NCBI GenBank assembly: GCA_963768655.1
Contig: CAVYIM010000003.1
Location: 160,001-224,000, forward strand
Source of the DNA: an uncultured Chloroflexia bacterium
Lineage (GTDB): Bacteria; Chloroflexota; Limnocylindria; Limnocylindrales; CSP1-4
Length of the DNA stretch: 64,000 bases
Direction of reading: 5' to 3'
Shown here: positions 41,779 to 53,150 of the stretch, piece by piece
Layout: each line of letters opens with the position of its first letter
How positions within the stretch are numbered: position 1 is the stretch's first letter
The notes under the pieces: generated by a model
The model's input: the letters and a program-made list of their open reading frames with translations, nothing else
Told to the model about the DNA's origin: nothing
Database searches by the model: none
Position numbers and translations under genes: made by a program

Positions 41779-43617
41779 TCAGGCTTCGCGGATCGCGCGG
41801 ACGGCGAGACCTGCCAGACCCGCAGCCGCGGCGAGGATGCCGCACGCCGCCAGCACGATGTGGAGGCCGAAGATCTGGGCGAAGAGGCCGCTGGTGATCA
41901 TCGCGACGGCGAGCATGGCGTTCACCAGCGCCAGGCGGATGGCGATGACTCGCCCCAGCATCTCGTCCGGCGTGCGCTGCTGGAAGATAGTCTGGCTCGG
42001 CACGACGAATATGACGTTGGCGACTCCGATAACCGCCGCCAGCACCAGCGCCAGCGGCAGGCTGCCGCCCACCGAGAAGAGGACCAGGCACACGCCCACG
42101 AGCGTGAACCCGGCCACGATCGCCGGCCCCTTCGGAATACGCGCCGCGACGGCGCCGATGGCGATGCCGCCGCCCAGGAGCCCCACGCCCATCGACATCT
42201 CGAAGAAGCCGTAGGCCGTGGGCGCGTCCAGCCTCCCCAGCGGCAACGCTGCGACGAGCAAGGGGGAGAGCGCCATCAATGCCCCAAGTCCATATTCGGC
42301 GATCGTGGCCTGGACCGTGGTCGCGAACAGGACCGTCTCGTCGCGCAGGAATCGCCAGCCGGCGAGGAGATCGGCCGTCAGCGACGCGACCGCGCCGCCC
42401 AAACCGGCTGCCCTCGCCCCGGCCTCGCCGCCTCCCGCCGGAACGATACGCGGGATCGCGACCGCGGCCACGAGCGCAGCGGAGGCGAGGTAGCTCGCCC
42501 CATCGATCCAGAACGCCATGGACAGCGCCGGTCCAAGGAACGCCACGAAGAGCCCGCCCAGGCCGTAGCCTGCCAGGTCGCTGGCGGTGTCGGCTACCCA
42601 CATCGCCGAGTTGGCCGTGAGCAGGTCCTCGTCCGGGACAACCTGCGGCAGCGCAGCCGCCCGCGCCGGGCGGAAGAACGACGAGGCGACCGCGATCAAG
42701 AGGACCAGGCCGATGACGAGGCCAATGTGCAGGTTCGCAACGACCGGGATGGCGAATACCAGCGCGGCTCTGACTAGATCCGAGCCGACCATAACCCACT
42801 TGCGATTCCACCGATCGACGAGCGCTCCGGCGAGCGGGCCAACCACCGACGTGGGAATCGTCATCGCGGCGAATACGAGGCCGAGCGCCAGCGGCGATTC
42901 GTTCGTGGCTCGAGCGACGAGGAAGACGAGCGCGATCTGATGGACTCGATCGCCCAGCGAGCTGATGACCTGTCCGAGCCACATGGCCGAGAACGGGCTG
43001 TTGGTCGCCAGCCGAACGTACGGATGGCGGAGCGCCCCCATTCGGACCGACCCGACCGAAACCGACACCAGCACCGGCGCCCGAACGACCGCGGCGAAGA
43101 CGAAGAAAGCCAGCCCCGCTCCGAGCAGCAGGTCGCCGACCGACGCGACAGATTGGATGATCGGGATCGGGATCGGGATGACGTCGGCAAGTGGACCACC
43201 GTGGGCGAAGAAGCTGGCGTCCATCGGGCCGGTCAGCAGGACGTGGAAGCTCGAATGAACGGCAGTCGGATCGAAGCCGGCGGCGGCCAGACTGGGTTGC
43301 CAGACCGGCATCCAACCGCCGTTTACGACGATGGCGATGCCGTTTGCCACGGTGCCCAGGGCGGCGGCCGTCAGCCCGGGCAGGTTCCGGTTGGCCAGCA
43401 ACATGGCTGTGAGTAGGACGTACGCGACCAGGACCAGCCACATCCGAACGGCGTCCGGAATGCCACCGGCTGCGAGGGCCGCGTCCAGCCCGAATCGGGC
43501 CCCTGCAGCCATCAGCAGCACTGGCCACCAGCGCAGCCGGACATCGAGCAGGTTCTCAAGTCGCCCGCCGGCGGCCAGACCCAGGCCAAACCCCAGGAAC
43601 ACGCCGAGGGCAGGCAC
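41779..43617 (-). CDS. Fusion of DUF5317-like membrane domain and MFS transporter
   Basis: N-part GGRLENL, NGGWMPV, LADVIPIP, SVGD; C-part WLGQVISSLGD, GALVDRWNRK, MLGRV; one frame. Confidence 0.85.
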   Translation of the reverse strand: MPALGVFLGFGLGLAAGGRLENLLDVRLRWWPVLLMAAGARFGLDAALAAGGIPDAVRMWLVLVAYVLLTAMLLANRNLPGLTAAALGTVANGIAIVVNGGWMPVWQPSLAAAGFDPTAVHSSFHVLLTGPMDASFFAHGGPLADVIPIPIPIIQSVASVGDLLLGAGLAFFVFAAVVRAPVLVSVSVGSVRMGALRHPYVRLATNSPFSAMWLGQVISSLGDRVHQIALVFLVARATNESPLALGLVFAAMTIPTSVVGPLAGALVDRWNRKWVMVGSDLVRAALVFAIPVVANLHIGLVIGLVLLIAVASSFFRPARAAALPQVVPDEDLLTANSAMWVADTASDLAGYGLGGLFVAFLGPALSMAFWIDGASYLASAALVAAVAIPRIVPAGGGEAGARAAGLGGAVASLTADLLAGWRFLRDETVLFATTVQATIAEYGLGALMALSPLLVAALPLGRLDAPTAYGFFEMSMGVGLLGGGIAIGAVAARIPKGPAIVAGFTLVGVCLVLFSVGGSLPLALVLAAVIGVANVIFVVPSQTIFQQRTPDEMLGRVIAIRLALVNAMLAVAMITSGLFAQIFGLHIVLAACGILAAAAGLAGLAVRAIREA

Positions 43618-43620
43618 CTG

Positions 43621-45012
43621 CTACGGGGTTGCGGCGGACGGAGTCGCGCCGGCCAGAGTCGCGCCGGCCGCCAGGCTCGCGCCGGCCGTCAGGCTCGCGA
43701 TCGAGCCCGCTGCGTCGCCGATGAGCGGCACGTCTCGAACTTCGCCCCGCCCCGGGTCGGCCAGCCCGCGCGCCCACTTGGTTCGGGCGAAGGCATCCAC
43801 GACATCCGGATCGAACTGGATCCCGCCGAACTTGCGCAGCTCGGCGAGGGCCTGCTCAGGCGCGAGCGGAGTCATTCGATACGGCCGCGCGTGCGTCATG
43901 GCCTCGAACGCGTCGGCAACGCCGAGGATTCGAGCCAGCTTGGGAATGTCGTCGCCCACGAGGTGGTCGGGATAGCCCGATCCGTTGAACCACTCGTGGT
44001 GGTGTCGAATGATCGGCAGTTCCGGCGCCAGGTGCGTGACCGGGGAGATGATCTCCGCGCCAAGGAGCGGGTGCATGTTCATGGTCGCGCGCTCGTCGCG
44101 CGTGAGCCTCTCCTGCTTGAGCAGCACCGAGTCCGGCACGCCGATCTTGCCGATGTCGTGGAGCAGGCCGCCCCACTCGAGGGCCTCGAGCTCATCGTCG
44201 CTCACTTTCATCGCCCGCCCGATGTCCATGGCGATCTCCTGGACGCCCTCACTGTGGCGGCTGGTGTACTTGTCACGCCTGTCGACCGCCGCCGCGAGGC
44301 TGCTCACGGTCTGAGTGAACATCTCGCGCACCTCCACGAATCGGGTGTACGCGAGCCTGGTCGTGTACAGCGGCACCGCGAACAGCAGTACGGCCCACCA
44401 TCCCGCCGTCAGGTACATCCGCGCCATGAGCCACGCGACCGGCGCAAGGGCGAGCATGTTCAGATACGCGCCACCTGACGCGCGCAGCAGCTTCGTGATC
44501 GGCTCCCCGTCGCGCAAAGAGACGATGCTGGCAGTTATCAGGATGTTCAGCGAGAAGTAGATCGCAGCAGCACCGACCGTCGCGGCGAAGTCGACCGCGA
44601 GGAAGGAGCGCCATGGAATGGCCTGGAGGGCGAAGCCGGCCAAGATGGCTGGCGTCATGATCGCGCAGTGATTCGCCAGTACGCCGTACCAGGGCAACTC
44701 TCGCCGAAGTTCGCGACGCTGCGTTGTCCCGAAAAGACCAACCCACGCAGCCACCGCGGGACCTCCGAGACTGACGGCTGCGATGACCGGGGCGAACCCA
44801 ACGTCGAGGACGCTCCCGCTCGGCATGCGTACGGCCAGTGACGAGCCGGCCAGAGCAAGAGCCACCCAGAAAACGACGCCAAGAATGACGCCGCCCTGGC
44901 CGCCCTTGATCGAAATCTCTGCTCCCGCGGGGCAAAGACCAACAGCGCTTGCCAGCAGCAAGCCACTGACGAGCGCCACTGCGGCGATCAGCGCTCCCAG
45001 CCGACGGTTCAT
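43621..45012 (-). CDS. Membrane-sensor HD-GYP cyclic-dinucleotide phosphodiesterase
   Basis: AGGAG then ATG 45012; several TM helices; YTSRHS, LHDIGK, HHEWFNGSGYP, ADAFEAM, RPYR. Confidence 0.92.
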   Translation of the reverse strand: MNRRLGALIAAVALVSGLLLASAVGLCPAGAEISIKGGQGGVILGVVFWVALALAGSSLAVRMPSGSVLDVGFAPVIAAVSLGGPAVAAWVGLFGTTQRRELRRELPWYGVLANHCAIMTPAILAGFALQAIPWRSFLAVDFAATVGAAAIYFSLNILITASIVSLRDGEPITKLLRASGGAYLNMLALAPVAWLMARMYLTAGWWAVLLFAVPLYTTRLAYTRFVEVREMFTQTVSSLAAAVDRRDKYTSRHSEGVQEIAMDIGRAMKVSDDELEALEWGGLLHDIGKIGVPDSVLLKQERLTRDERATMNMHPLLGAEIISPVTHLAPELPIIRHHHEWFNGSGYPDHLVGDDIPKLARILGVADAFEAMTHARPYRMTPLAPEQALAELRKFGGIQFDPDVVDAFARTKWARGLADPGRGEVRDVPLIGDAAGSIASLTAGASLAAGATLAGATPSAATP

Positions 45013-45080
45013 CGCCACTCCTAACTCAGGCGCGGCAATCTACCCCGGCCCAAAACCGAAGGGCTATGGGAGAGAGGTAC

Positions 45081-45170
45081 CTAGAACGGCCTGTAACTGG
45101 CGCCGCCGGCGGCGGCGGCCATGAGGCCTGCTCCGAGCACTAGGAGGAGGGATTCGATTCGACGACGCAT
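45081..45170 (-). CDS. Unannotated 29-aa signal-peptide-like ORF MRRRIESLLLVLGAGLMAAAAGGASYRPF
   Basis: GGTGA 5 nt before ATG; basic, hydrophobic, small-residue, short polar tail layout; between promoter and HD-GYP gene. Confidence 0.75.
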   Translation of the reverse strand: MRRRIESLLLVLGAGLMAAAAGGASYRPF

Positions 45171-45387
45171 TTCGTTCACCAAGGTCGGTTGTTGCGCGCA
45201 GGGAGCCACGGTCTGTTGTTTGCCTCGGGGGACACGGGAGTCCGCTCCTGAACAGGGAGCAACGCGCGGTGGGTCGCACTAGGTGCTGGGTCCCTGCTCA
45301 AGTGCCCGAATTCGGCCGGGGCCGCCAAGCGTCCGAGCGTTCTCTTGTCCGGAGGGCGTGACGGAACGACAGCCCCGGACCTTCGGC

Positions 45388-45416
45388 ACGTTAGGAAGCC
45401 AAAAGTAGGGGGTCAA
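45388..45416 (-). promoter_or_regulatory. Sigma70-type promoter upstream of the peptide ORF
   Basis: TTGACC-17 nt-TAACGT on minus strand. Confidence 0.7.
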
Positions 45417-45451
45417 TACGGTAGCTGGCCTAGGCTGGGGGCCTGGTTCGG

Positions 45452-48400
45452 TCAGATTGATTCGAGTGGGGGAGGCTCGATCCCCAGCTGCTCGCGCATG
45501 ACGCTCGCGTAGTGCGCGTACTGCTCGGCCGCAGCAGCGTGGGCGCCCGTTCGTCGGTAGAGCCGGAGGAGGCAGAGTTCGATCTGCTCTGCGTCCGGGT
45601 CGGCCTGCAAGGCCAGTTGAGCAACCGAAAGCGCTCGTTCGAATGCGCCTGCCTTGGTATCCGCGACGACCGCCCGCTCGATTCGATCCAGGAAGCTGGC
45701 GTGGAGGGTGTCTCGAAACGTCGACGCCCAGTCGTCATAGGTGAAGTCGACCGCGAAGCGTCCGGTGTAGGTCTCGGCGAGCCGGGTGACCAGCTCGGGC
45801 GATTGATCCCGGCGCATGGCACCAATGAGCTTCAGGCACTCTGAACTGCGGCTGCGCACCAACTCCGGATCGAGCCAAACCAGATCGGCACGGCTGTTGA
45901 GATAGCCAGCGGTCGCATCTTCTGCCGTCGTAGGTTCGAACACCTGACGGAGGAAGTACGAGGTCTGATTGAGGGAGTTGGCTCCTGCTTCCGGCTCCAT
46001 CTGCGGCCAGAGCGCCTCGATGACTTGCTCGCGTGATGCCGTGAATTGCGGGCGGGTCAGCAGGAAAGTCAGGAGTGACAGCACCTTCTTGCGAATCTCC
46101 GTCCCGGGAACAACCCGGTCGCCGAGGCGCACGGTCACGCGACCGAGGTCGTCTATGAAGGCCGGCGGGGCGAGCCGCCGGGTCAGGGCAAGCCCGGCAT
46201 CGGGGATCCGCAGGCTCTTCCTCTTTGACAACTCTCGCAGCAACTTGATGTCGGTTTCGTCACCGACCAGGTCCAGGAGCTCCGTCGCTCTCCTGATATC
46301 TCCCGGCCTGGCGTCCCCGTTGGAAAGTAACTGACGAAGGGCCCAGCGCCAGCGCTCAGGGCGGAGCGCCGCCTCTTGCCTGACGATTCCCAGGCTGGCC
46401 GCGTCGAGGTCCGCGAGCCGCCTCGTCACGAGTTCCGCCTGTATAGACAGGTACGCGGCGTCGCCGGATTCGAGCGAGCGGACATGGGTCACGAGCGCTT
46501 CGTTGCTGGAAACGAGCGCCTGGGTCAAGCGAATGCTCTTCCACCAGAACCAGGCCTGTTGACGCTCGGCGAACCTCAGGTGCTCGAGTAGCGAACCGGG
46601 GAGACTCGGATCGCCCGGTGATTGGGAGGCGAGTATCTGGAGGCCCAGCGAGCGGACGGCGCTGGAGAATGCGGGAGCCTGTAGATGTATTCCGAGCTCT
46701 GACAAGAGGCTGGTCGCGCGATCCAAGTTTCCATGCTCAAGTTCGAGCCTGGCTTCGACCTGCCGCCAGTACGTATTGTCGACCCAACGCGGGTTGTCCT
46801 GGAATGCTTGCACGAGGATCCGCTGGCCCTCCGCTGGATCCCCGTACATTGCTTGGAGCTCAGCGGCTTCGGCAACGGTCTCAGGCTCAACCCAGCTGCC
46901 CGGGTCGCCGAACGCCGAATTGGCGTGAGCTTGGGATTCACCCCACCTTCCAGCCAGAGCCAAACCCTTTGCCAGGTTCATATGCGCGGCACCAATGTCG
47001 CCGCTGTTCCCCGCGGACAGAACAAGGTTCACAGCTGCCTCGCCAACGCTGATCGCCGCTTGGTGGTCGCCTCGACTGCCTTCAACTATCGAAAGGTTCA
47101 CGAGACTGATTGCCTCGTGTCTCGTGTGGTTTCTCTGTCGGCTCAGGCGAGCGGCCTCGATGAGAGCATCGCGCAGTGCGTCTAGGCTCCCGGCGTCGGA
47201 AGAATCCACCACGCACTTGGCCGCACGCGCAATTGCCGCCAACTCGGGATCGCCGCAGCGGACCAGTTCCGCGCTCGCACTGGAGGACATCTCAGAGTCT
47301 TGGCGCTGGATTCCCAGAAGCAACCTATTCAGTGCATGTGTCATACCAAACTCTGGGTTCACGAGCGCCAGACCTGCCGAGGCTTCCTCGGCCTGGCGAG
47401 CGACTGCCACAGCCTCGTCGTAGCGGCCTTCGGCGGCAAGTTGGCGACTGCGGAGGATGTCGTACCAGGGGTTCGGGTTGGAGTCGGGGAAGCGGGTGAT
47501 AAGGTCCTCGGCCGCGGCAAAGTCGCCGGTGCCGATGATCGTGGGGACGGCGGCGCAAACAACCCGGCGCACCTCGTCCGCGTCACCGGCTGCGGCCCAG
47601 TGGCGGGCGGCGAGGCGCCACGATTGCGGCTCCAGGGCCGAGGCCAGACCGCGATGAAGACCGGTGATCCCCGCCTGACCAAGTTCCGCCTCGAGACGGG
47701 CGAGCAGGAACTCGCGCACAAGTGGATGAAGCCGCCACGACGCAATCGCCCCGGCCCCTCTTGACAGCAGCCCGAGTCGCTGCGCGTGGCCGAGGAGTCG
47801 CCGCGCCTCGGCGACGCCGACGTCGGCTGCCACTGCGGCGATATCCGCGTCGATCTCCGCCAGGAGCGCTATCCGGATGAGGAAGCCGCGCAGATCCGCC
47901 TTCAGCTCGCCGACCACTTCCTCCGCCAGATAGTCGTAGAGGTCGCCCTCGGCGCCGGTCAGGGATTGAACGAAGGCACGAACCTGCGCGGTCGATCGGC
48001 CGTCGACGGCAGTCCTCACCAACTGCAGAGATGCCGCCCAGCCTTCTGTTCGCGCCTGCAAGTCATGCAGAACGTCGGGTTCGAGCGGCTGGCGATAAGA
48101 CTCGCGAAAGAGGCGCCCGGTCTCGGTCTCGTCGAAGCGAAGCTCCTCCCGTCCCAGCTCGGCGAGCTCGCCCCGGGCGCGCAGCGCCGCCGCGGCCAGG
48201 TTCGGTGTCCGCCTGCTCGCCAGGATCACCGTCAGCTTCGCGGGCGCCCTCGCGATGAGGCGCTCGACCACCGCCCGAATCTCCGGCACGTCTTCGGCGA
48301 GGTGGAAGTCGTCCAGAACGATTGCCGACGGAACGTCCCCAAGACAGTCGATCTCGGTGAGAAGCGTCCGCAGGACCGTTTCCTCCCGCGTCGGTTCGAC

Positions 48401-49168: not shown

Positions 49169-50515
49169 TCAGTTGCCCTGCGTCCCGATCTCCGGCGCCG
49201 GCGTGTTGCCCACGGTCCAGGTCGCGGGCACGTACGTGGGCACGATCTGGATGAAGATCTGGCCCCGAACCATGGGCACCGGCTGGCCCTTGTTCGGACC
49301 GCTCGCGTAGGTCACGAGCGTGGTGGCGTGTTCGTTCTTCTTGGTCCAGATCGCCGGCGTTGCGAGGCCGTTGTTGAAGACCATCGCCGAACCGTGGCCG
49401 ACGTATTGGATGTCAAGGCGGTGCTTGTGCAGCTCGGCCGGAGTGTCGTTCGCCAGGCCTGCGGTCATGTACTCCAGGATCACATTCGAGGGGGCGATGC
49501 GCTGCCCGGTGGAGGCATCGATCTCGGGGCTATCGGCCGTGGCCGAGCGCGGATAGGTGTTCGTCGTCCAGTCGTAGTTGTAGACGATGACGTTGTGCTC
49601 GTACGGCACGACGATCTGGCCACCCATGAGCCGGGCGCTGCCGGGAAGCGCGTCTTCGAAGTTGAATGGTGAGGTCGTGACGGGAGCCGTGCCGCCGAGT
49701 TTCGTGGTCAGCGTTTCAAGCTTGGCGTACGAGGTGTACAGGTTATGGGGCGCCTCTCGGAACGAGGTCCGCCACATGTAGCCGCTCTTCCCGCCGTAGC
49801 GGAGTCCGTCGATGTTGTAGATGTACTTGCCGGTGTCCTGGGCCAGGCGGTTCATCGCATTCGGCGCGCCCCACATGTGCGTATAGCCGGCCCGCCATTC
49901 CTCGGCCCACGCGACGAAGTAGATCCTGGCGCTGCGGACCGGTCCGATGGCCGGCGGCGCCTCGGTCTGGAAGAGGGCCATGTAGCGCGGAATGCCGCCC
50001 TCGGCCGGAGCCTGGTAGACGATGTTCGCCATCGACAGTCCCGACTGCGGCCGGGCGCCCTGCTGGTCGTCGATCATGACGGCGATCGGCTTGCGGGTGG
50101 CCAGCGCAGCCTCGCCCGCCGGGAGCCACACGCCGTCGGTGGTGGCCGCCACCATGCCCGCCGGGACGGCCGAGCCCGACGGCGAGGGAGAGGGCCCCGC
50201 CGAGCCCGACGGCGTGGGCGAGGCTGCGAGCGAGGGTGAGGCCGTGGGCGAGGCCAGGAGCGCGGCCAGGGATGTGGCTGCCGGCGTGCCGGTTGCGTCG
50301 GCGCCGGGGAACGGCGTCGGCGACGGGGAGGTAGCCGAAATGTCGGCGACGGCGATGCTGCTGCCGACGACGGCCACGACGATGGCGATCGCGGCCCCAA
50401 CGACAATGGGACGGCGCGACGCAACGCGGCGAACGAACGCGAACGATCGTCCGATCAGTGGCAAGCGGGACGACAGGAGGCCGCGAAATGGCGCGAGCGA
50501 TCCCCCGGAATTCAT
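49169..50515 (-). CDS. DUF3048-family exported protein with S/P/T linker
   Basis: AVMIDD, ARPQSGL, EGGIPR, IGPVRSAR, APHNLY. Confidence 0.88.
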   Translation of the reverse strand: MNSGGSLAPFRGLLSSRLPLIGRSFAFVRRVASRRPIVVGAAIAIVVAVVGSSIAVADISATSPSPTPFPGADATGTPAATSLAALLASPTASPSLAASPTPSGSAGPSPSPSGSAVPAGMVAATTDGVWLPAGEAALATRKPIAVMIDDQQGARPQSGLSMANIVYQAPAEGGIPRYMALFQTEAPPAIGPVRSARIYFVAWAEEWRAGYTHMWGAPNAMNRLAQDTGKYIYNIDGLRYGGKSGYMWRTSFREAPHNLYTSYAKLETLTTKLGGTAPVTTSPFNFEDALPGSARLMGGQIVVPYEHNVIVYNYDWTTNTYPRSATADSPEIDASTGQRIAPSNVILEYMTAGLANDTPAELHKHRLDIQYVGHGSAMVFNNGLATPAIWTKKNEHATTLVTYASGPNKGQPVPMVRGQIFIQIVPTYVPATWTVGNTPAPEIGTQGN

Positions 50516-50823: not shown

Positions 50824-52173
50824 TCAGACCGCCTCGGCGTAGCGCTCGGCGGCGTAGCTCACGAAGCGGGTCTGGCTCTTCTTGAACCATAGCTTGACTT
50901 CGCCCGTGGGGCCATTTCGGTGCTTCGCCAGGCGCAGGTTTACGACCTCGCCGTCCGTTTCGACCTCTTCGCCGGGCTTGTCTCTCTCCCTCCACAAGAA
51001 GAGCACGAGGTCCGCGTCCTGCTCGATGGCGCCGGACTCGCGGAGGTCGGACAGACGCGGCTCGCGCGACTCGCGCATCTCCGGCTGACGCGACAGCTGG
51101 GAGAGGGCGAGGACCGGTACCTTGAGCTCGCGGGCGAGAGATTTGAGACCGCGACTGATCTCCGAGACCTCCTGGACTCGGTTGGCGTCGCGCGTGTTGG
51201 TCGTGGCCTGCATGAGCTGCAGGTAGTCCACGATCAGCAGGTCCAGTCCGCGCTCCGCCTGTAGCCGGCGGGCCTTGGTCCGCAACTCCATGGTGCCGAT
51301 GCTGGGTGTGTCGTCGATGAAGATCGGCGCTTCGGAGAGGGCGTTCATCGCCGGCGCGATCCGGGCGAAGTCCATCTCCTCGAGGAAGCCCGACCTAAGC
51401 CGCTGCGAGTCGATGGACGCGACGCTCGAAAGCAGACGAAGGACGAGCTGCTCTTTGCTCATCTCCAGGCTGAACACGCCGACGGTCTTGCCCTCGCGCA
51501 CGGCCGCGTGCTCGGCGATGTTGAGCGCCAGGCTGGTCTTGCCGACGCTCGGCCGGGCTGCCAGGACGATCAGGTCACTCGCCTGAAAGCCGGTGGTAAG
51601 CAGGTCCAGGTCCGTGAAGCCCGAGGCGATGCCGACGATCTCGCCGCGATGGGCGTGTAGGTAGTCCAGCCGGTCGTAGGCGTCGTGAAGGAGCGTCCGC
51701 AGCGCGCTGAAGCTGTCGCCGGACCTCCGCTGGCTGACCGCGAACAGCTCGGCCTCCGACCGATCGATCGCCTCCTGGATGTCCGGCCCGTCCTCGTAAC
51801 CGATTGCCGCGATCTTGCCGGCGGCCTGGATCAGCCGCCGCAAGAGGGCCTTGCGCTCGACAATTCGCCCGTACTGGCCGACGTGAACGGCGGTGGGAGT
51901 GTCGTTGCCGAGTGTCGAGAGATAGCTGGCGCCGCCCACAGCCTCCAGCTCGCCGGCCCGCTCCAGCGCCTCCGCGACCGTGACGACGTCGATCGGCTCG
52001 CGATGCTCGAACAGGTCCAGCATCGCGGCGTAGATGCGGCCGTGGGCCTGGCGGTAGAAATCCTCCGGGTGGAGGAAATCCGCGACCTCGATGATCGCGT
52101 CGCGGTCGATGAGGATGGACCCGAGCACGGCCTGCTCGGAGTCGAGGTTCTGTGGCGGCAGTCGGTCGATCAC
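50824..52173 (-). CDS. dnaB: Replicative DNA helicase
   Basis: PPQNLDSEQAVLG, AARPSVGKT, DYLQL, LRESGAIEQDAD, KHRNGPTG; no intein. Confidence 0.97.
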   Translation of the reverse strand: MIDRLPPQNLDSEQAVLGSILIDRDAIIEVADFLHPEDFYRQAHGRIYAAMLDLFEHREPIDVVTVAEALERAGELEAVGGASYLSTLGNDTPTAVHVGQYGRIVERKALLRRLIQAAGKIAAIGYEDGPDIQEAIDRSEAELFAVSQRRSGDSFSALRTLLHDAYDRLDYLHAHRGEIVGIASGFTDLDLLTTGFQASDLIVLAARPSVGKTSLALNIAEHAAVREGKTVGVFSLEMSKEQLVLRLLSSVASIDSQRLRSGFLEEMDFARIAPAMNALSEAPIFIDDTPSIGTMELRTKARRLQAERGLDLLIVDYLQLMQATTNTRDANRVQEVSEISRGLKSLARELKVPVLALSQLSRQPEMRESREPRLSDLRESGAIEQDADLVLFLWRERDKPGEEVETDGEVVNLRLAKHRNGPTGEVKLWFKKSQTRFVSYAAERYAEAV

Positions 52174-52499
52174 GGGTGGGCGGACCCCTTGAAACCTGAC
52201 TTGACGGTGACGGTGACGGTGACGACGCAATGGTGGCTCCGCCGAACTCTCGCCGCGTCAACGAACCCGACTGGTCGGCGGCTCACCTATCCCCGAACTG
52301 GGCGCCCTGTGGGCGGACTGTGGACATTCGATGTGGATGGCTCACCCGCTTTCTCACCCGAATTCGCCCGCTACCCATCTGGCCGGCCCGAAGGCCGAGG
52401 CCGAGGCGCCGCCGAGCACCGCAGCGAGCGCACCGAGCGTGCGTGAGCGAAGGAGCGCAGAAGGCAACGAAGGCATCGGCCGTCTGACGGCCAGATGAT

Positions 52500-53150
52500 C
52501 TAGTCCAGGCGGCGGATGACCCCGATCAGCTTCCCCTGAATTCGCACGTCCGCGTAGAACATCGGCGGGTACTGAGCATTCGCGGGCTGCAGGCGAATGC
52601 GGCCCTGCTCCTTGAAGAACTGCTTGAGCGTTACTGAGTTCTCTTCCACCTGAGCGACGACAATGTCACCGTCACGGGCCGTCTGCTGCGGCCGGATCAG
52701 CACGAAGTCTCCATCCTGGATGTGGGCGTCGATCATCGAGTCGCCCCGGACACGCAGGACGTATGCGTCGCCCGAGGGGGCGAGCAGGTCCGGCACGGCC
52801 ATGCTCTCGGATGCGTCCTGGTAGGCCTCGATCGGGCCGCCGGCGGCGATCTCGCCCACGATCGGCAGCACATGGGCCTCCGTGGCGGTGGCCTGGGGCA
52901 TGAGCTCACCCGAGAGGCCGAGGCGCATTGCCGCCAGCGGCGTCAGGCGGATCGCGCGCGACTGAGCCGCGCCCCTCTCCAGGTAACCCTCGCGCTCGAG
53001 CATCTGGAGGTGATGGTGAACGGCCGACGTGGAGGCGAGATCGACGGCGACCGCGATTTCGCGCACGGACGGCGGGTAGCCGCGGGTTCGCAGCGTCGCG
53101 GCGATGAAGTCGAGGATCCTGCGCTTACGTTCGGCGTCGTGCTTGGTCAC
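52500..53150 (-). CDS. lexA: SOS repressor LexA
   Basis: GYPPSVREI, IAAG cleavage site, GDSM, TLK. Confidence 0.97.
   Translation of the reverse strand: MTKHDAERKRRILDFIAATLRTRGYPPSVREIAVAVDLASTSAVHHHLQMLEREGYLERGAAQSRAIRLTPLAAMRLGLSGELMPQATATEAHVLPIVGEIAAGGPIEAYQDASESMAVPDLLAPSGDAYVLRVRGDSMIDAHIQDGDFVLIRPQQTARDGDIVVAQVEENSVTLKQFFKEQGRIRLQPANAQYPPMFYADVRIQGKLIGVIRRLD

Follow-up and report, generated by a model that had tools for sequence, protein, structure and literature searches.

Some small membrane proteins bind to a membrane sensor or transporter and tune its activity; MgrB, which works with PhoQ, and KdpF in KdpFABC are known examples. Tiny genes of another kind encode the pro-peptides of the Phr, PapR and arbitrium-type RRNPP systems, i.e., short secreted precursors with the active 5–7 residues at the extreme C-terminus, and the RRNPP receptors are defined by the TPR fold. 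In this work, we have analysed a 64,000-nucleotide stretch of an uncultured Chloroflexia genome (the window; contig CAVYIM010000003.1, positions 160,001 to 224,000) and, within it, a small open reading frame (sORF) of 29 codons on the minus strand. It belongs to an operon on that strand with the order promoter, cyclic di-GMP (c-di-GMP)-II riboswitch, a second mini-gene that we call upstream ORF 1 (uORF1), sORF, MASE9-HD-GYP phosphodiesterase, and an exporter in which DUF5317 is joined to a transporter of the major facilitator superfamily (MFS). We have found that the sORF is a gene of fixed length under purifying selection at the amino-acid level, and that the peptide is associated with MASE9 rather than with the output domain, the adjoining regulator or the riboswitch.

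The sORF product resembles MgrB and KdpF in its length of about 30 residues, its one hydrophobic helix, its basic and presumably cytoplasmic end, the location of its gene in or beside the operon of the putative partner, and the ease with which such a gene is missed by annotation. It differs from them in that there is no sequence relation, that its partner would be the MASE9 domain of a c-di-GMP phosphodiesterase or kinase, with binding predicted from sequence, and that it stands behind a c-di-GMP riboswitch and a second mini-ORF. Like the Phr, PapR and arbitrium genes, it comes shortly after the gene of a regulator with repeats and is read in the same direction. However, the 29-residue product has no pro-region, the regulator is of the MalT-like STAND plus SARP type, a riboswitch and a promoter lie between regulator and sORF, the host belongs to Chloroflexota and not to Firmicutes, and in other families a peptide of the sORF type co-occurs with MASE9 and not with the regulator.

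Two further systems can be compared with the leader of the operon. The riboswitch agrees with the c-di-GMP-II family (RF01786) by a full-model match, by helices backed by covariation, and by its place in the 5' leader of a c-di-GMP-turnover gene; it differs in that the first downstream frames are two conserved mini-ORFs, and in that the apparent expression platform sequesters, with partial support, the start of a 10-codon ORF instead of the start of the enzyme gene. The drug-sensing erm and mef leaders, TnaC and PepNL are likewise very short conserved upstream ORFs, and here too the operon carries a Mef-like pump, but most of the class ends in K-G-W/F, the second ORF is of a hydrophobic membrane type, and ribosome arrest is conjectural at this locus. 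A literature search, in which supplements were not covered, has returned nothing on DUF5317, on MASE9-associated small proteins or on small membrane proteins with HD-GYP, and a search of titles only has returned nothing relevant on c-di-GMP riboswitches with leader ORFs. The accessible part of the preprint that defines MASE9 mentions no small partner (10.1101/2021.11.05.467447). Overall, a micro-protein beside a membrane sensor is a known kind of arrangement, while the present family, its link to MASE9, and the proposed relay from riboswitch through uORF to sORF are new.

A 29-codon gene under purifying selection

The minus strand from 45170 to 45081 reads ATG CGT CGT CGA ... CCG TTC TAG and translates as MRRRIESLLLVLGAGLMAAAAGGASYRPF*, in agreement with the preliminary description of this DNA, which had reported here a 29-residue ORF with the tail SYRPF and a TAG stop. 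The window has a G+C content of 68.5%, a composition at which frames full of Ala, Gly, Leu and Arg codons often stay open, and the sORF lies inside a structured leader. Both circumstances would suit a chance ORF, or a conservation that comes from overlapping RNA structure only, with no peptide made. We have collected all the ATG- or GTG-started ORFs of 20–45 residues in the six frames (557 in total), and three of them combine at least two K/R in residues 1–8 with an apolar run of at least 17 residues. Actually, two of these three are the sORF itself through nested starts, leaving one other ORF of such a shape in 557.

The intergenic DNA at 44900–45460 could be matched in 19 of 24 other genomes within the genus, and 16 genomes of a small-genome sister family gave no match. 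In all the 12 loci first fetched (own locus counted), a 29-codon ORF is found at the same place, and while the overall identity goes down to 45%, the residues M1, R4, L16 and A24-S25-Y26-R27-P28-F29 are invariant. The codons behind these residues are not: R4 is written as CGA, CGC, CGG or CGT, L16 by five codons including TTG (TTG/CTN), A24 by four, S25 as AGC, AGT or TCC, R27 as AGA, AGG or CGG, and P28 by three, and the stop is TAG or TGA. That is, the amino acids have been kept through synonymous as well as multi-base codon changes. For 58 sequences, the ratio of non-synonymous to synonymous differences (pN/pS) is 0.63 in frame and 0.40 for codons 23–29, while the shifted frames give 1.09 and 1.25 and are thus unconstrained. 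Since pS is near saturation, the true constraint on the sORF should be stronger than these ratios say. Together with the length, which is exact in 58 loci, these observations leave hardly any probability for a chance ORF or for a mere by-product of RNA structure.

For the genus-wide count, a profile built from the 12 first sequences was used. Of 51 genomes, 38 carry one copy, and the share rises to 19 of 20 among those at least 90% complete. To go beyond the genus, 80 orthologous loci were collected via the HD-GYP protein; they come from Chloroflexota, mostly from metagenome-assembled genomes of Candidatus Limnocylindria/Limnocylindrales. A profile match is present just upstream of the HD-GYP gene in 67 of these 80 loci of the class Limnocylindria, and in 58 loci the frame has exactly 29 codons, with ATG as the start in 51 and GTG in 7. 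The other 13 loci comprise four contigs without upstream DNA, seven with a weaker form recognised by pattern, ending in GVRP[LV] or similar, and two with nothing clear. In addition, a broader profile (A5) gives 26 matches at E ≤ 0.001 in 401 Chloroflexota genomes; they are confined to two families of Limnocylindria, where 17 of 23 and 8 of 16 are positive, with none elsewhere in that sample. The tail SYRPF occurs at 25 loci; SLKGF, SLRGF, SFKGF, TLKGF and GVRPV/L are also seen, and a few variants, among them SYRSF, SYRAF and SYRTF, occur singly, which indicates that the proline of the tail is not essential.

A Shine-Dalgarno-like motif or the Trp-stop of uORF1 stands within 18 nucleotides of the sORF start in 54 of 58 loci. 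The GGTGA five nucleotides upstream, pointed out in the preliminary description, is indeed present, but its second role had escaped notice, as it is the Trp-stop (TGG-TGA) of uORF1; both uORF1 and the c-di-GMP-II riboswitch upstream had been missed. Short contigs with exact matches to 45224–45314 (the 3' part of the aptamer plus the 5' part of uORF1) and to 45076–45107 exist in two peat RNA libraries from two studies. The same libraries hold a few diverged pieces of the HD-GYP coding part, the depth not being comparable between parts. The runs contain less than 0.1 of the sampled words, in short contigs only. As DNA carry-over is possible in such libraries, the contigs give a weak hint that the leader is transcribed. 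We infer that the sORF is also translated. Overall, the coding conservation and the apolar run bear out the earlier picture of a small coding gene whose product has a body of the signal-peptide or transmembrane type and ends in a short, conserved tail.

Association of the small ORF with MASE9

The shape of the product has been examined on 57 distinct sequences. K/R predominates at positions 2, 4 and 7 (position 4 is R in 54 and K in 3), the apolar run is 18–19 residues long in 51, and the conserved sites are G/S13, A19 (52), G23 (55), A24 (56), S25 (49), [RK]27 (56) and F29 (52); the tail carries a single basic residue. Position 22 is always G, A or S, and all 57 sequences have the n-h-c build, with a small residue at −3 and another at −1, i.e., [G/A/S]-[G/E]-A before S25, which is necessary for cleavage but insufficient alone. 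This shape suits a single-pass helix whose basic end lies inside and whose short basic/aromatic tail anchors it outside, and it suits just as well a signal peptide that is cut at a small-x-small site. A scan of Pfam and NCBIfam has given no family at cut-off, the best match being a C-terminal sorting-domain model with 17.7 bits at a cut-off of 29.

We have also looked at the company that such ORFs keep in other genomes. A search of 301 Chloroflexota genomes for MASE9 has given a match in 23, a tally that includes one unpublished genome whose locus was left out of what follows; proteins of Thermotoga and Thermus were flagged by the control for this search. There are 18 usable MASE9 genes from outside Limnocylindria, and two of them have less than 200 nucleotides of upstream DNA, which leaves 16. 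A look-alike was defined as an ORF that lies within 400 nucleotides upstream on the same strand, has a basic N-terminus, contains both an apolar run of 15 residues or more and a small-x-small motif, and carries W or F among its last three residues. An M-start look-alike is found at 8 of the 18 loci, and with one GTG-start ORF included the count becomes 9 of the 16 with enough upstream DNA. As a control, the same script was applied to the 2094 long ORFs of the window's own genome, of which 41 pass (2.0%); its strict form is passed by two, one being the sORF itself.

The MASE9 proteins behind the nine look-alikes have various outputs: HD-GYP in four, a MASE9-HD-GYP-MFS_3 fusion in two, a histidine kinase in two (one with GAF), and a MASE9-only match in one. 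The c-di-GMP-II aptamer is absent in all the 16 loci searched, and no regulator of the window type is among the proteins beside the look-alikes, where the constant neighbour is MASE9. As to sequence, one look-alike from another class has exactly 29 residues and has 11 positions in common with a distant Limnocylindria form by eye. When the Limnocylindria profile was run over the 1425 frames of those loci, six look-alikes took the top six places, with 4–10.5 bits. We infer that the sORF belongs to an undescribed small-ORF family located directly upstream of MASE9 proteins in Chloroflexota.

Several details of these loci may be recorded. At two of them, the look-alike is preceded by an ORF of 8–9 codons with the same last residue (by eye, ...FSW/...VSW and ...WQF/...LSF). 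At L166 (1524–5027 of its contig), a look-alike ending in AQW is followed by a 19-codon ORF ending in FRW-stop and then by a MASE9-GAF-histidine kinase gene. Two loci of another Chloroflexota family (L174 and L161) encode MASE9, HD-GYP and MFS_3 in one protein of more than 720 residues; this fuses kinds of genes that adjoin each other in the window, and links HD-GYP phosphodiesterases to DHA3 exporters. We have also considered a fusion of the sORF to MASE9. It was rejected, as the 18 MASE9 N-termini start directly at the first MASE9 helix by eye, whether or not a small ORF is present.

Based on the above observations, we propose that the sORF product is a single-pass membrane micro-protein that works with the MASE9 sensor and is made when c-di-GMP is high, a reading to which we give not quite an even chance. 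The basic N-terminus would stay in the cytoplasm, the apolar helix of 18–19 residues would cross the membrane, and the S-Y-R-P-F tail would lie at the outer membrane face. Within the membrane, the target of the peptide would be the MASE9 domain of the HD-GYP phosphodiesterase encoded next to it, for which it would serve as accessory subunit or modulator. The topology, the MASE9 binding and the switch direction are all predictions from sequence. Such a partner in the membrane would explain the association across contexts, the fixed length and the conserved mid-helix residues. The preliminary description had offered two readings. The one with a single-transmembrane modulator of the HD-GYP sensor has more in its favour, because look-alikes precede MASE9 genes with HD-GYP and histidine kinase outputs and because length and mid-helix are kept, although binding itself is a prediction.

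As to the domain at issue, the Pfam model of MASE9 (PF20972) matches the N-terminal domain of the HD-GYP protein in 18 of 33 orthologs at E ≤ 1, with 1.2e-7 as the best, and the membrane half resembles MASE9 clusters with an ESM Atlas feature score of 0.93. We have predicted the complex of the sORF product with residues 1–240 of the HD-GYP protein, using alignments; the median was 0.28 at a mark of 0.32, for a measure that is uncalibrated below 30 residues and was run without controls, so that this value speaks neither for nor against binding. According to the accessible part of the preprint from its describers, the ligand of MASE9 is argued to bind within the membrane, in view of poorly conserved outer loops and charged residues in the membrane core (10.1101/2021.11.05.467447); HdgA of Streptomyces is also named there.

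On the other hand, several observations weigh against this proposal. Seven of the 16 loci have no look-alike, and with scores of only 4–10.5 bits the look-alikes are at best candidates for common descent. The window's own HD-GYP protein has no Pfam MASE9 match at E ≤ 1. Conservation along the sORF helix shows no significant helical periodicity (permutation p 0.25–0.63), and in 9/9 look-alikes the small-x-small motif ends the apolar run, as it would in a cleavable signal peptide. The pairing between riboswitch and uORF1 start, described below, is not significant in the loci closest to the window. Finally, uORF1, a soluble peptide of 10 residues that ends in a like tripeptide, [KR]-[GP]-[WF], is left unexplained by this reading.

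The small-x-small motif would also suit a pre-peptide, in which a Sec signal peptide (residues 1–24) would be cut by signal peptidase I after [G/A/S]-x-A and the C-terminal pentapeptide released to the cell exterior as a self-made signal. SYRPF, or SLKGF and GVRPV in other genera, would then be sensed by MASE9 or, after import, by the MalT-like/TPR regulator, while the uORF1 units would form a second signal source exported by the DUF5317-MFS protein. The n-h-c layout in all 57 sequences agrees with this, and conservation is strongest at the C-terminal end. However, a length fixed at 29 and the conservation of G/S13 and A19 in mid-helix are unusual for a mere export signal. Pheromones diverge fast, unlike the tail, which is nearly constant across ~50 species of the genus. 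Also, MASE9 has short outer loops of poor conservation in the accessible text of its describers (10.1101/2021.11.05.467447), and beside the look-alikes MASE9 alone is constant. In all, we consider the pre-peptide rather unlikely, though it has to be weighed again with uORF1, the exporter and the regulator below.

Table 1 Coordinates of the features in and around the operon (positions in the window, except for the last row)
Feature	Position	Strand	Details
Regulator, 1148 aa	45452..48898	minus	MalT-like STAND ATPase, TPR, OmpR-type winged helix (Trans_reg_C), BTAD; SARP-type output
Sigma-70-like promoter	45388..45416	minus	TTGACC-N17-TAACGT; ~70 nt upstream of aptamer
c-di-GMP-II riboswitch aptamer (RF01786), diverged copy	45259..45343	minus	Rfam scan, full model, 30.8 bits
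Shine-Dalgarno of uORF1	45245..45249	minus	AGGAG, 9 nt before GTG
uORF1	45176..45235	minus	GTG start, 19 codons, VSPEANNRPWLPARNNRPW*; two in-frame copies of a 9-residue unit
sORF	45081..45170	minus	29 codons + TAG; RRR, apolar ~18-19 residues, A-G-G-A-S, tail Y-R-P-F
sORF-HD-GYP spacer	45013..45080	minus	GTAC, CCCATAGCC, variable hairpin, TAGATTGCCGCG, AGGAG Shine-Dalgarno (45018-45022)
MASE9-HD-GYP protein, membrane sensor and c-di-GMP phosphodiesterase	43621..45012 (or 45018)	minus	HD_5 E 2e-37
DUF5317 + DHA3-type MFS transporter, fused	41779..43617	minus	DUF5317 2.3e-19, MFS_1, MFS_3, TIGR00900 2e-55, Mef(A) 5e-22
Extra RF01786 matches (L136-L138)	G000 C4:318475-318561, C3:684355-684439, C6:106745-106827	-, +, +	

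Riboswitch and second mini-gene in the leader

The aptamer of the window scores 30.8 bits, below the Rfam gathering score of 53.5. RF01786 also matches in 10 of 11 other loci of the genus (27–47.5 bits), and in 18 of 20 more distant orthologous loci the gathering score is passed (54–72 bits), which marks the window copy as a diverged ortholog of a true member. With a covariance model built on the Rfam structure (R1), the element is found in 62 of the 80 loci, always upstream of the small ORF. Both partners have changed in 16 of its 22 pairs, and pairing holds for 81.8% of cells, as against 31–44% in slid controls, in an alignment that was fitted to the riboswitch model and hence leans towards it. 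The element is thus a genuine orthologous c-di-GMP-II riboswitch, with predicted ligand binding.

The promoter pattern TTGAC-N(17–19)-TnnnnT occurs at the corresponding position in 57 of 59 loci, and this conservation suggests that the leader has its own promoter, although a consensus promoter scanner gave no call at the window copy. In the same 57 of 59 loci, a conserved stretch TAGG(T/C)A...CGTA precedes the pattern (45388–45430 in the window); it could be a binding site of the adjoining SARP-type regulator.

Class-wide, the core of uORF1 has 10 codons, [VM]-x-P-[ED]-x-x-x-[KR]-[GP]-[WF]-stop, with AGGAG or GGAGG 7–10 nucleotides before the GTG or ATG. In a set of 53 distinct sequences, 52 carry [KR]8, and 49 close with Trp and 4 with Phe (TTC); Lys is written as AAG or AAA, Arg by four codons, and all three stops are used. 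The clade whose sORF ends in GVRP[VL] also has a uORF1, of the form M-x-P-N-x-G-x-K-x-[FW]. A strict co-variation between the tails of uORF1 and sORF was considered and rejected, since uORF1 of this clade still ends in K-x-[FW]. In-frame tandem copies of a 27- or 21-nucleotide unit (2–4 repeats) have arisen in at least four separate lineages: L056/L057/L058 with the window, L064/L078, L072/L088, and L092.

When three distant loci were folded to minimum energy, the riboswitch helix P1 had its 5' strand (ACGCUCG) paired with CGAGCGU, which overlaps the uORF1 start codon. This complementarity reaches p ≤ 0.05 relative to shuffled sequences in 12 of 23 distant loci and in 7 of 28 loci of the genus. 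The leader may hence be a translational ON switch, where c-di-GMP would stabilise P1 and thereby free the uORF1 start. The uORF1 stop lies 4–5 nucleotides before the sORF ATG in most loci of the genus, and with a sORF start five nucleotides behind that stop, sORF translation should follow that of uORF1; in this manner translation would pass from the one to the other. Peptide and phosphodiesterase would in that case be produced side by side, and because the HD-GYP enzyme degrades c-di-GMP, an ON switch would close a negative feedback loop on this molecule.

This close coupling is also what would be expected if the two frames were cis-acting leaders, whose act of translation relays the riboswitch decision by ribosome-mediated unmasking of the next start, while the common C-terminal motif slows or arrests the ribosome near the stop, possibly in response to a tunnel-binding antibiotic. 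The antibiotic comes into question as a trigger since the operon ends with a Mef-like efflux pump, the MFS part being of the Mef(A)/Tap group. In the genus, both small ORFs end in [KR]-[PG]-[aromatic], alike in amino acids and not in nucleotides. Erythromycin arrest motifs include X+P and XPW in the accessible part of the source (PMC8298421), and the genus form of uORF1, N-R-P-W, contains both. However, most of the class ends in K-G-[WF], which is not among the published motifs, the uORF1 of L064 continues by eye for three more codons after its last Trp, and PepNL, a known termination-arrest peptide, ends differently as far as the accessible part of its report goes (PMC11890864).

The spacer behind the sORF bears on the same question. 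GTAC follows the sORF stop within eight nucleotides in 52 of 67 loci (45077–45080 in the window), compared with 1.4% of background 9-nucleotide windows, and such a signal directly after the stop would suit a cis-acting leader. Distant loci have a palindrome CTAGTAC...GTACTAG that involves the 5' end of the leader; GTAC or the palindrome could mark the binding site of a protein or a pairing over a long distance. The post-stop stretch pairs with the ribosome-binding region of the HD-GYP gene better than shuffled sequences in 6 of 44 loci, but this fails in the other 38, including all those of the genus, and RNAalifold gives no consensus pairs for the spacer in 24 loci of the genus. At termination, a 29-residue chain is still inside the ribosome tunnel, so the sORF cannot be a force-sensing monitor. 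Moreover, a basic N-terminus and an apolar helix of 18–19 residues, kept class-wide, are not needed by a leader peptide, and the fact that the small ORF accompanies MASE9 whatever the output, also where the riboswitch is absent, speaks for a partner at the protein level. A purely cis-acting role is therefore, in our estimate, quite improbable.

As for the pre-peptide, it would explain why a soluble mini-peptide with a like tail, [KR]-[GP]-[WF], travels with the sORF and has been multiplied in tandem, its 9- or 7-residue unit being duplicated in at least four lineages as in multi-copy peptide precursors; but uORF1 has no export signal. The two mini-genes may also be combined in a c-di-GMP-gated circuit, in which the riboswitch would turn on two genes with the same C-terminal basic-small-aromatic motif and their products would be cognate ligands of MASE9: a membrane-inserted or secreted 29-mer and a soluble 9–10-mer, the latter multiplied in tandem in several lineages. 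We regard this circuit as improbable. The probability left over by the micro-protein, the pre-peptide, the cis-acting leader and the chance ORF goes to functions that we have not thought of.

Mini-ORFs do not appear to be a general trait of this riboswitch type in the window's own genome, where R1 finds one copy only. The same genome holds three more RF01786 matches below threshold (28–33 bits), which form a distinct and mutually similar subtype and may represent a variant riboswitch class (Table 1). No mini-ORFs of the uORF1/sORF kind follow these three; two precede ORFs of ~100–125 residues, and one precedes a signal-peptide- or lipoprotein-like ORF that runs past the end of the fragment.

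Neighbouring genes and biological meaning

The order of the locus is kept across the 80 orthologous loci, with the C-terminal part of the regulator upstream in 66, and DUF5317 and the MFS transporter each downstream in 76. A type I toxin was considered for the sORF and rejected on the class-wide fixed gene order with the sensor gene; antisense RNA was not searched for. The likely start of the HD-GYP protein is the ATG at 45012, and its HD, HHHE and GSGYPD motifs are invariant in 33/33 orthologs.

The preliminary description had suggested a cleavage after GGA that releases SYRPF, comparable in size to the Phr pentapeptides of Bacillus. For an RRNPP quorum-sensing cassette, an adjacent receptor of that type, travelling with the peptide gene, was looked for and has not been found. 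The regulator next door does have TPR repeats, as the pre-peptide would like, but its N-terminal half with the AAA/STAND domain is MalT-like at E 1e-63, it carries Trans_reg_C and BTAD, a domain-library scan has given no match to an RRNPP-type family, and it is not beside the look-alikes.

The operon ends in a DHA3 MFS exporter, which would again suit a secreted signal, and this transporter has a weak match (22.8 bits) to a peptide (ryptide) exporter. Its DUF5317 part (43048–43617) has 15 invariant residues in 51 sequences, including D145, S159-x-G161-D162 and three Asn. Prompted by D145 and S-x-G-D162, we have considered DUF5317 as a GxGD-type intramembrane aspartyl protease, and fold searches do not support it. 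The AlphaFold model (pLDDT 81.7) has no Foldseek match in the PDB at E ≤ 0.001, and a wide fold search returns generic helical bundles only (best Z 7.7) and no protease fold, which also counts against the pre-peptide.

Outside the cassette, the neighbours on the minus strand are ordinary: a DUF3048 protein (49169–50515, by Pfam), a DnaB-type helicase-like ORF (50824–52230) and a LexA-type repressor-like ORF (52500–53150), the latter two assigned by eye.

Considering that a c-di-GMP riboswitch with two mini-ORFs in front of the enzyme gene is an unusual layout, the locus offers a case in which translational relay can be studied. If the circuit with two MASE9 ligands were true, the cell would express its c-di-GMP level as a peptide signal of its own making, with feedback both on the breakdown of this molecule and on export by the DUF5317-MFS protein. 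The two gene families, of 29 and 10 codons, have been missed by standard annotation in Limnocylindria, an uncultured lineage that is abundant in peat and soil. As to MASE9, it is a widespread orphan sensor domain of HD-GYP enzymes and histidine kinases, without known ligand or partner, for which the sORF product is now a concrete candidate.

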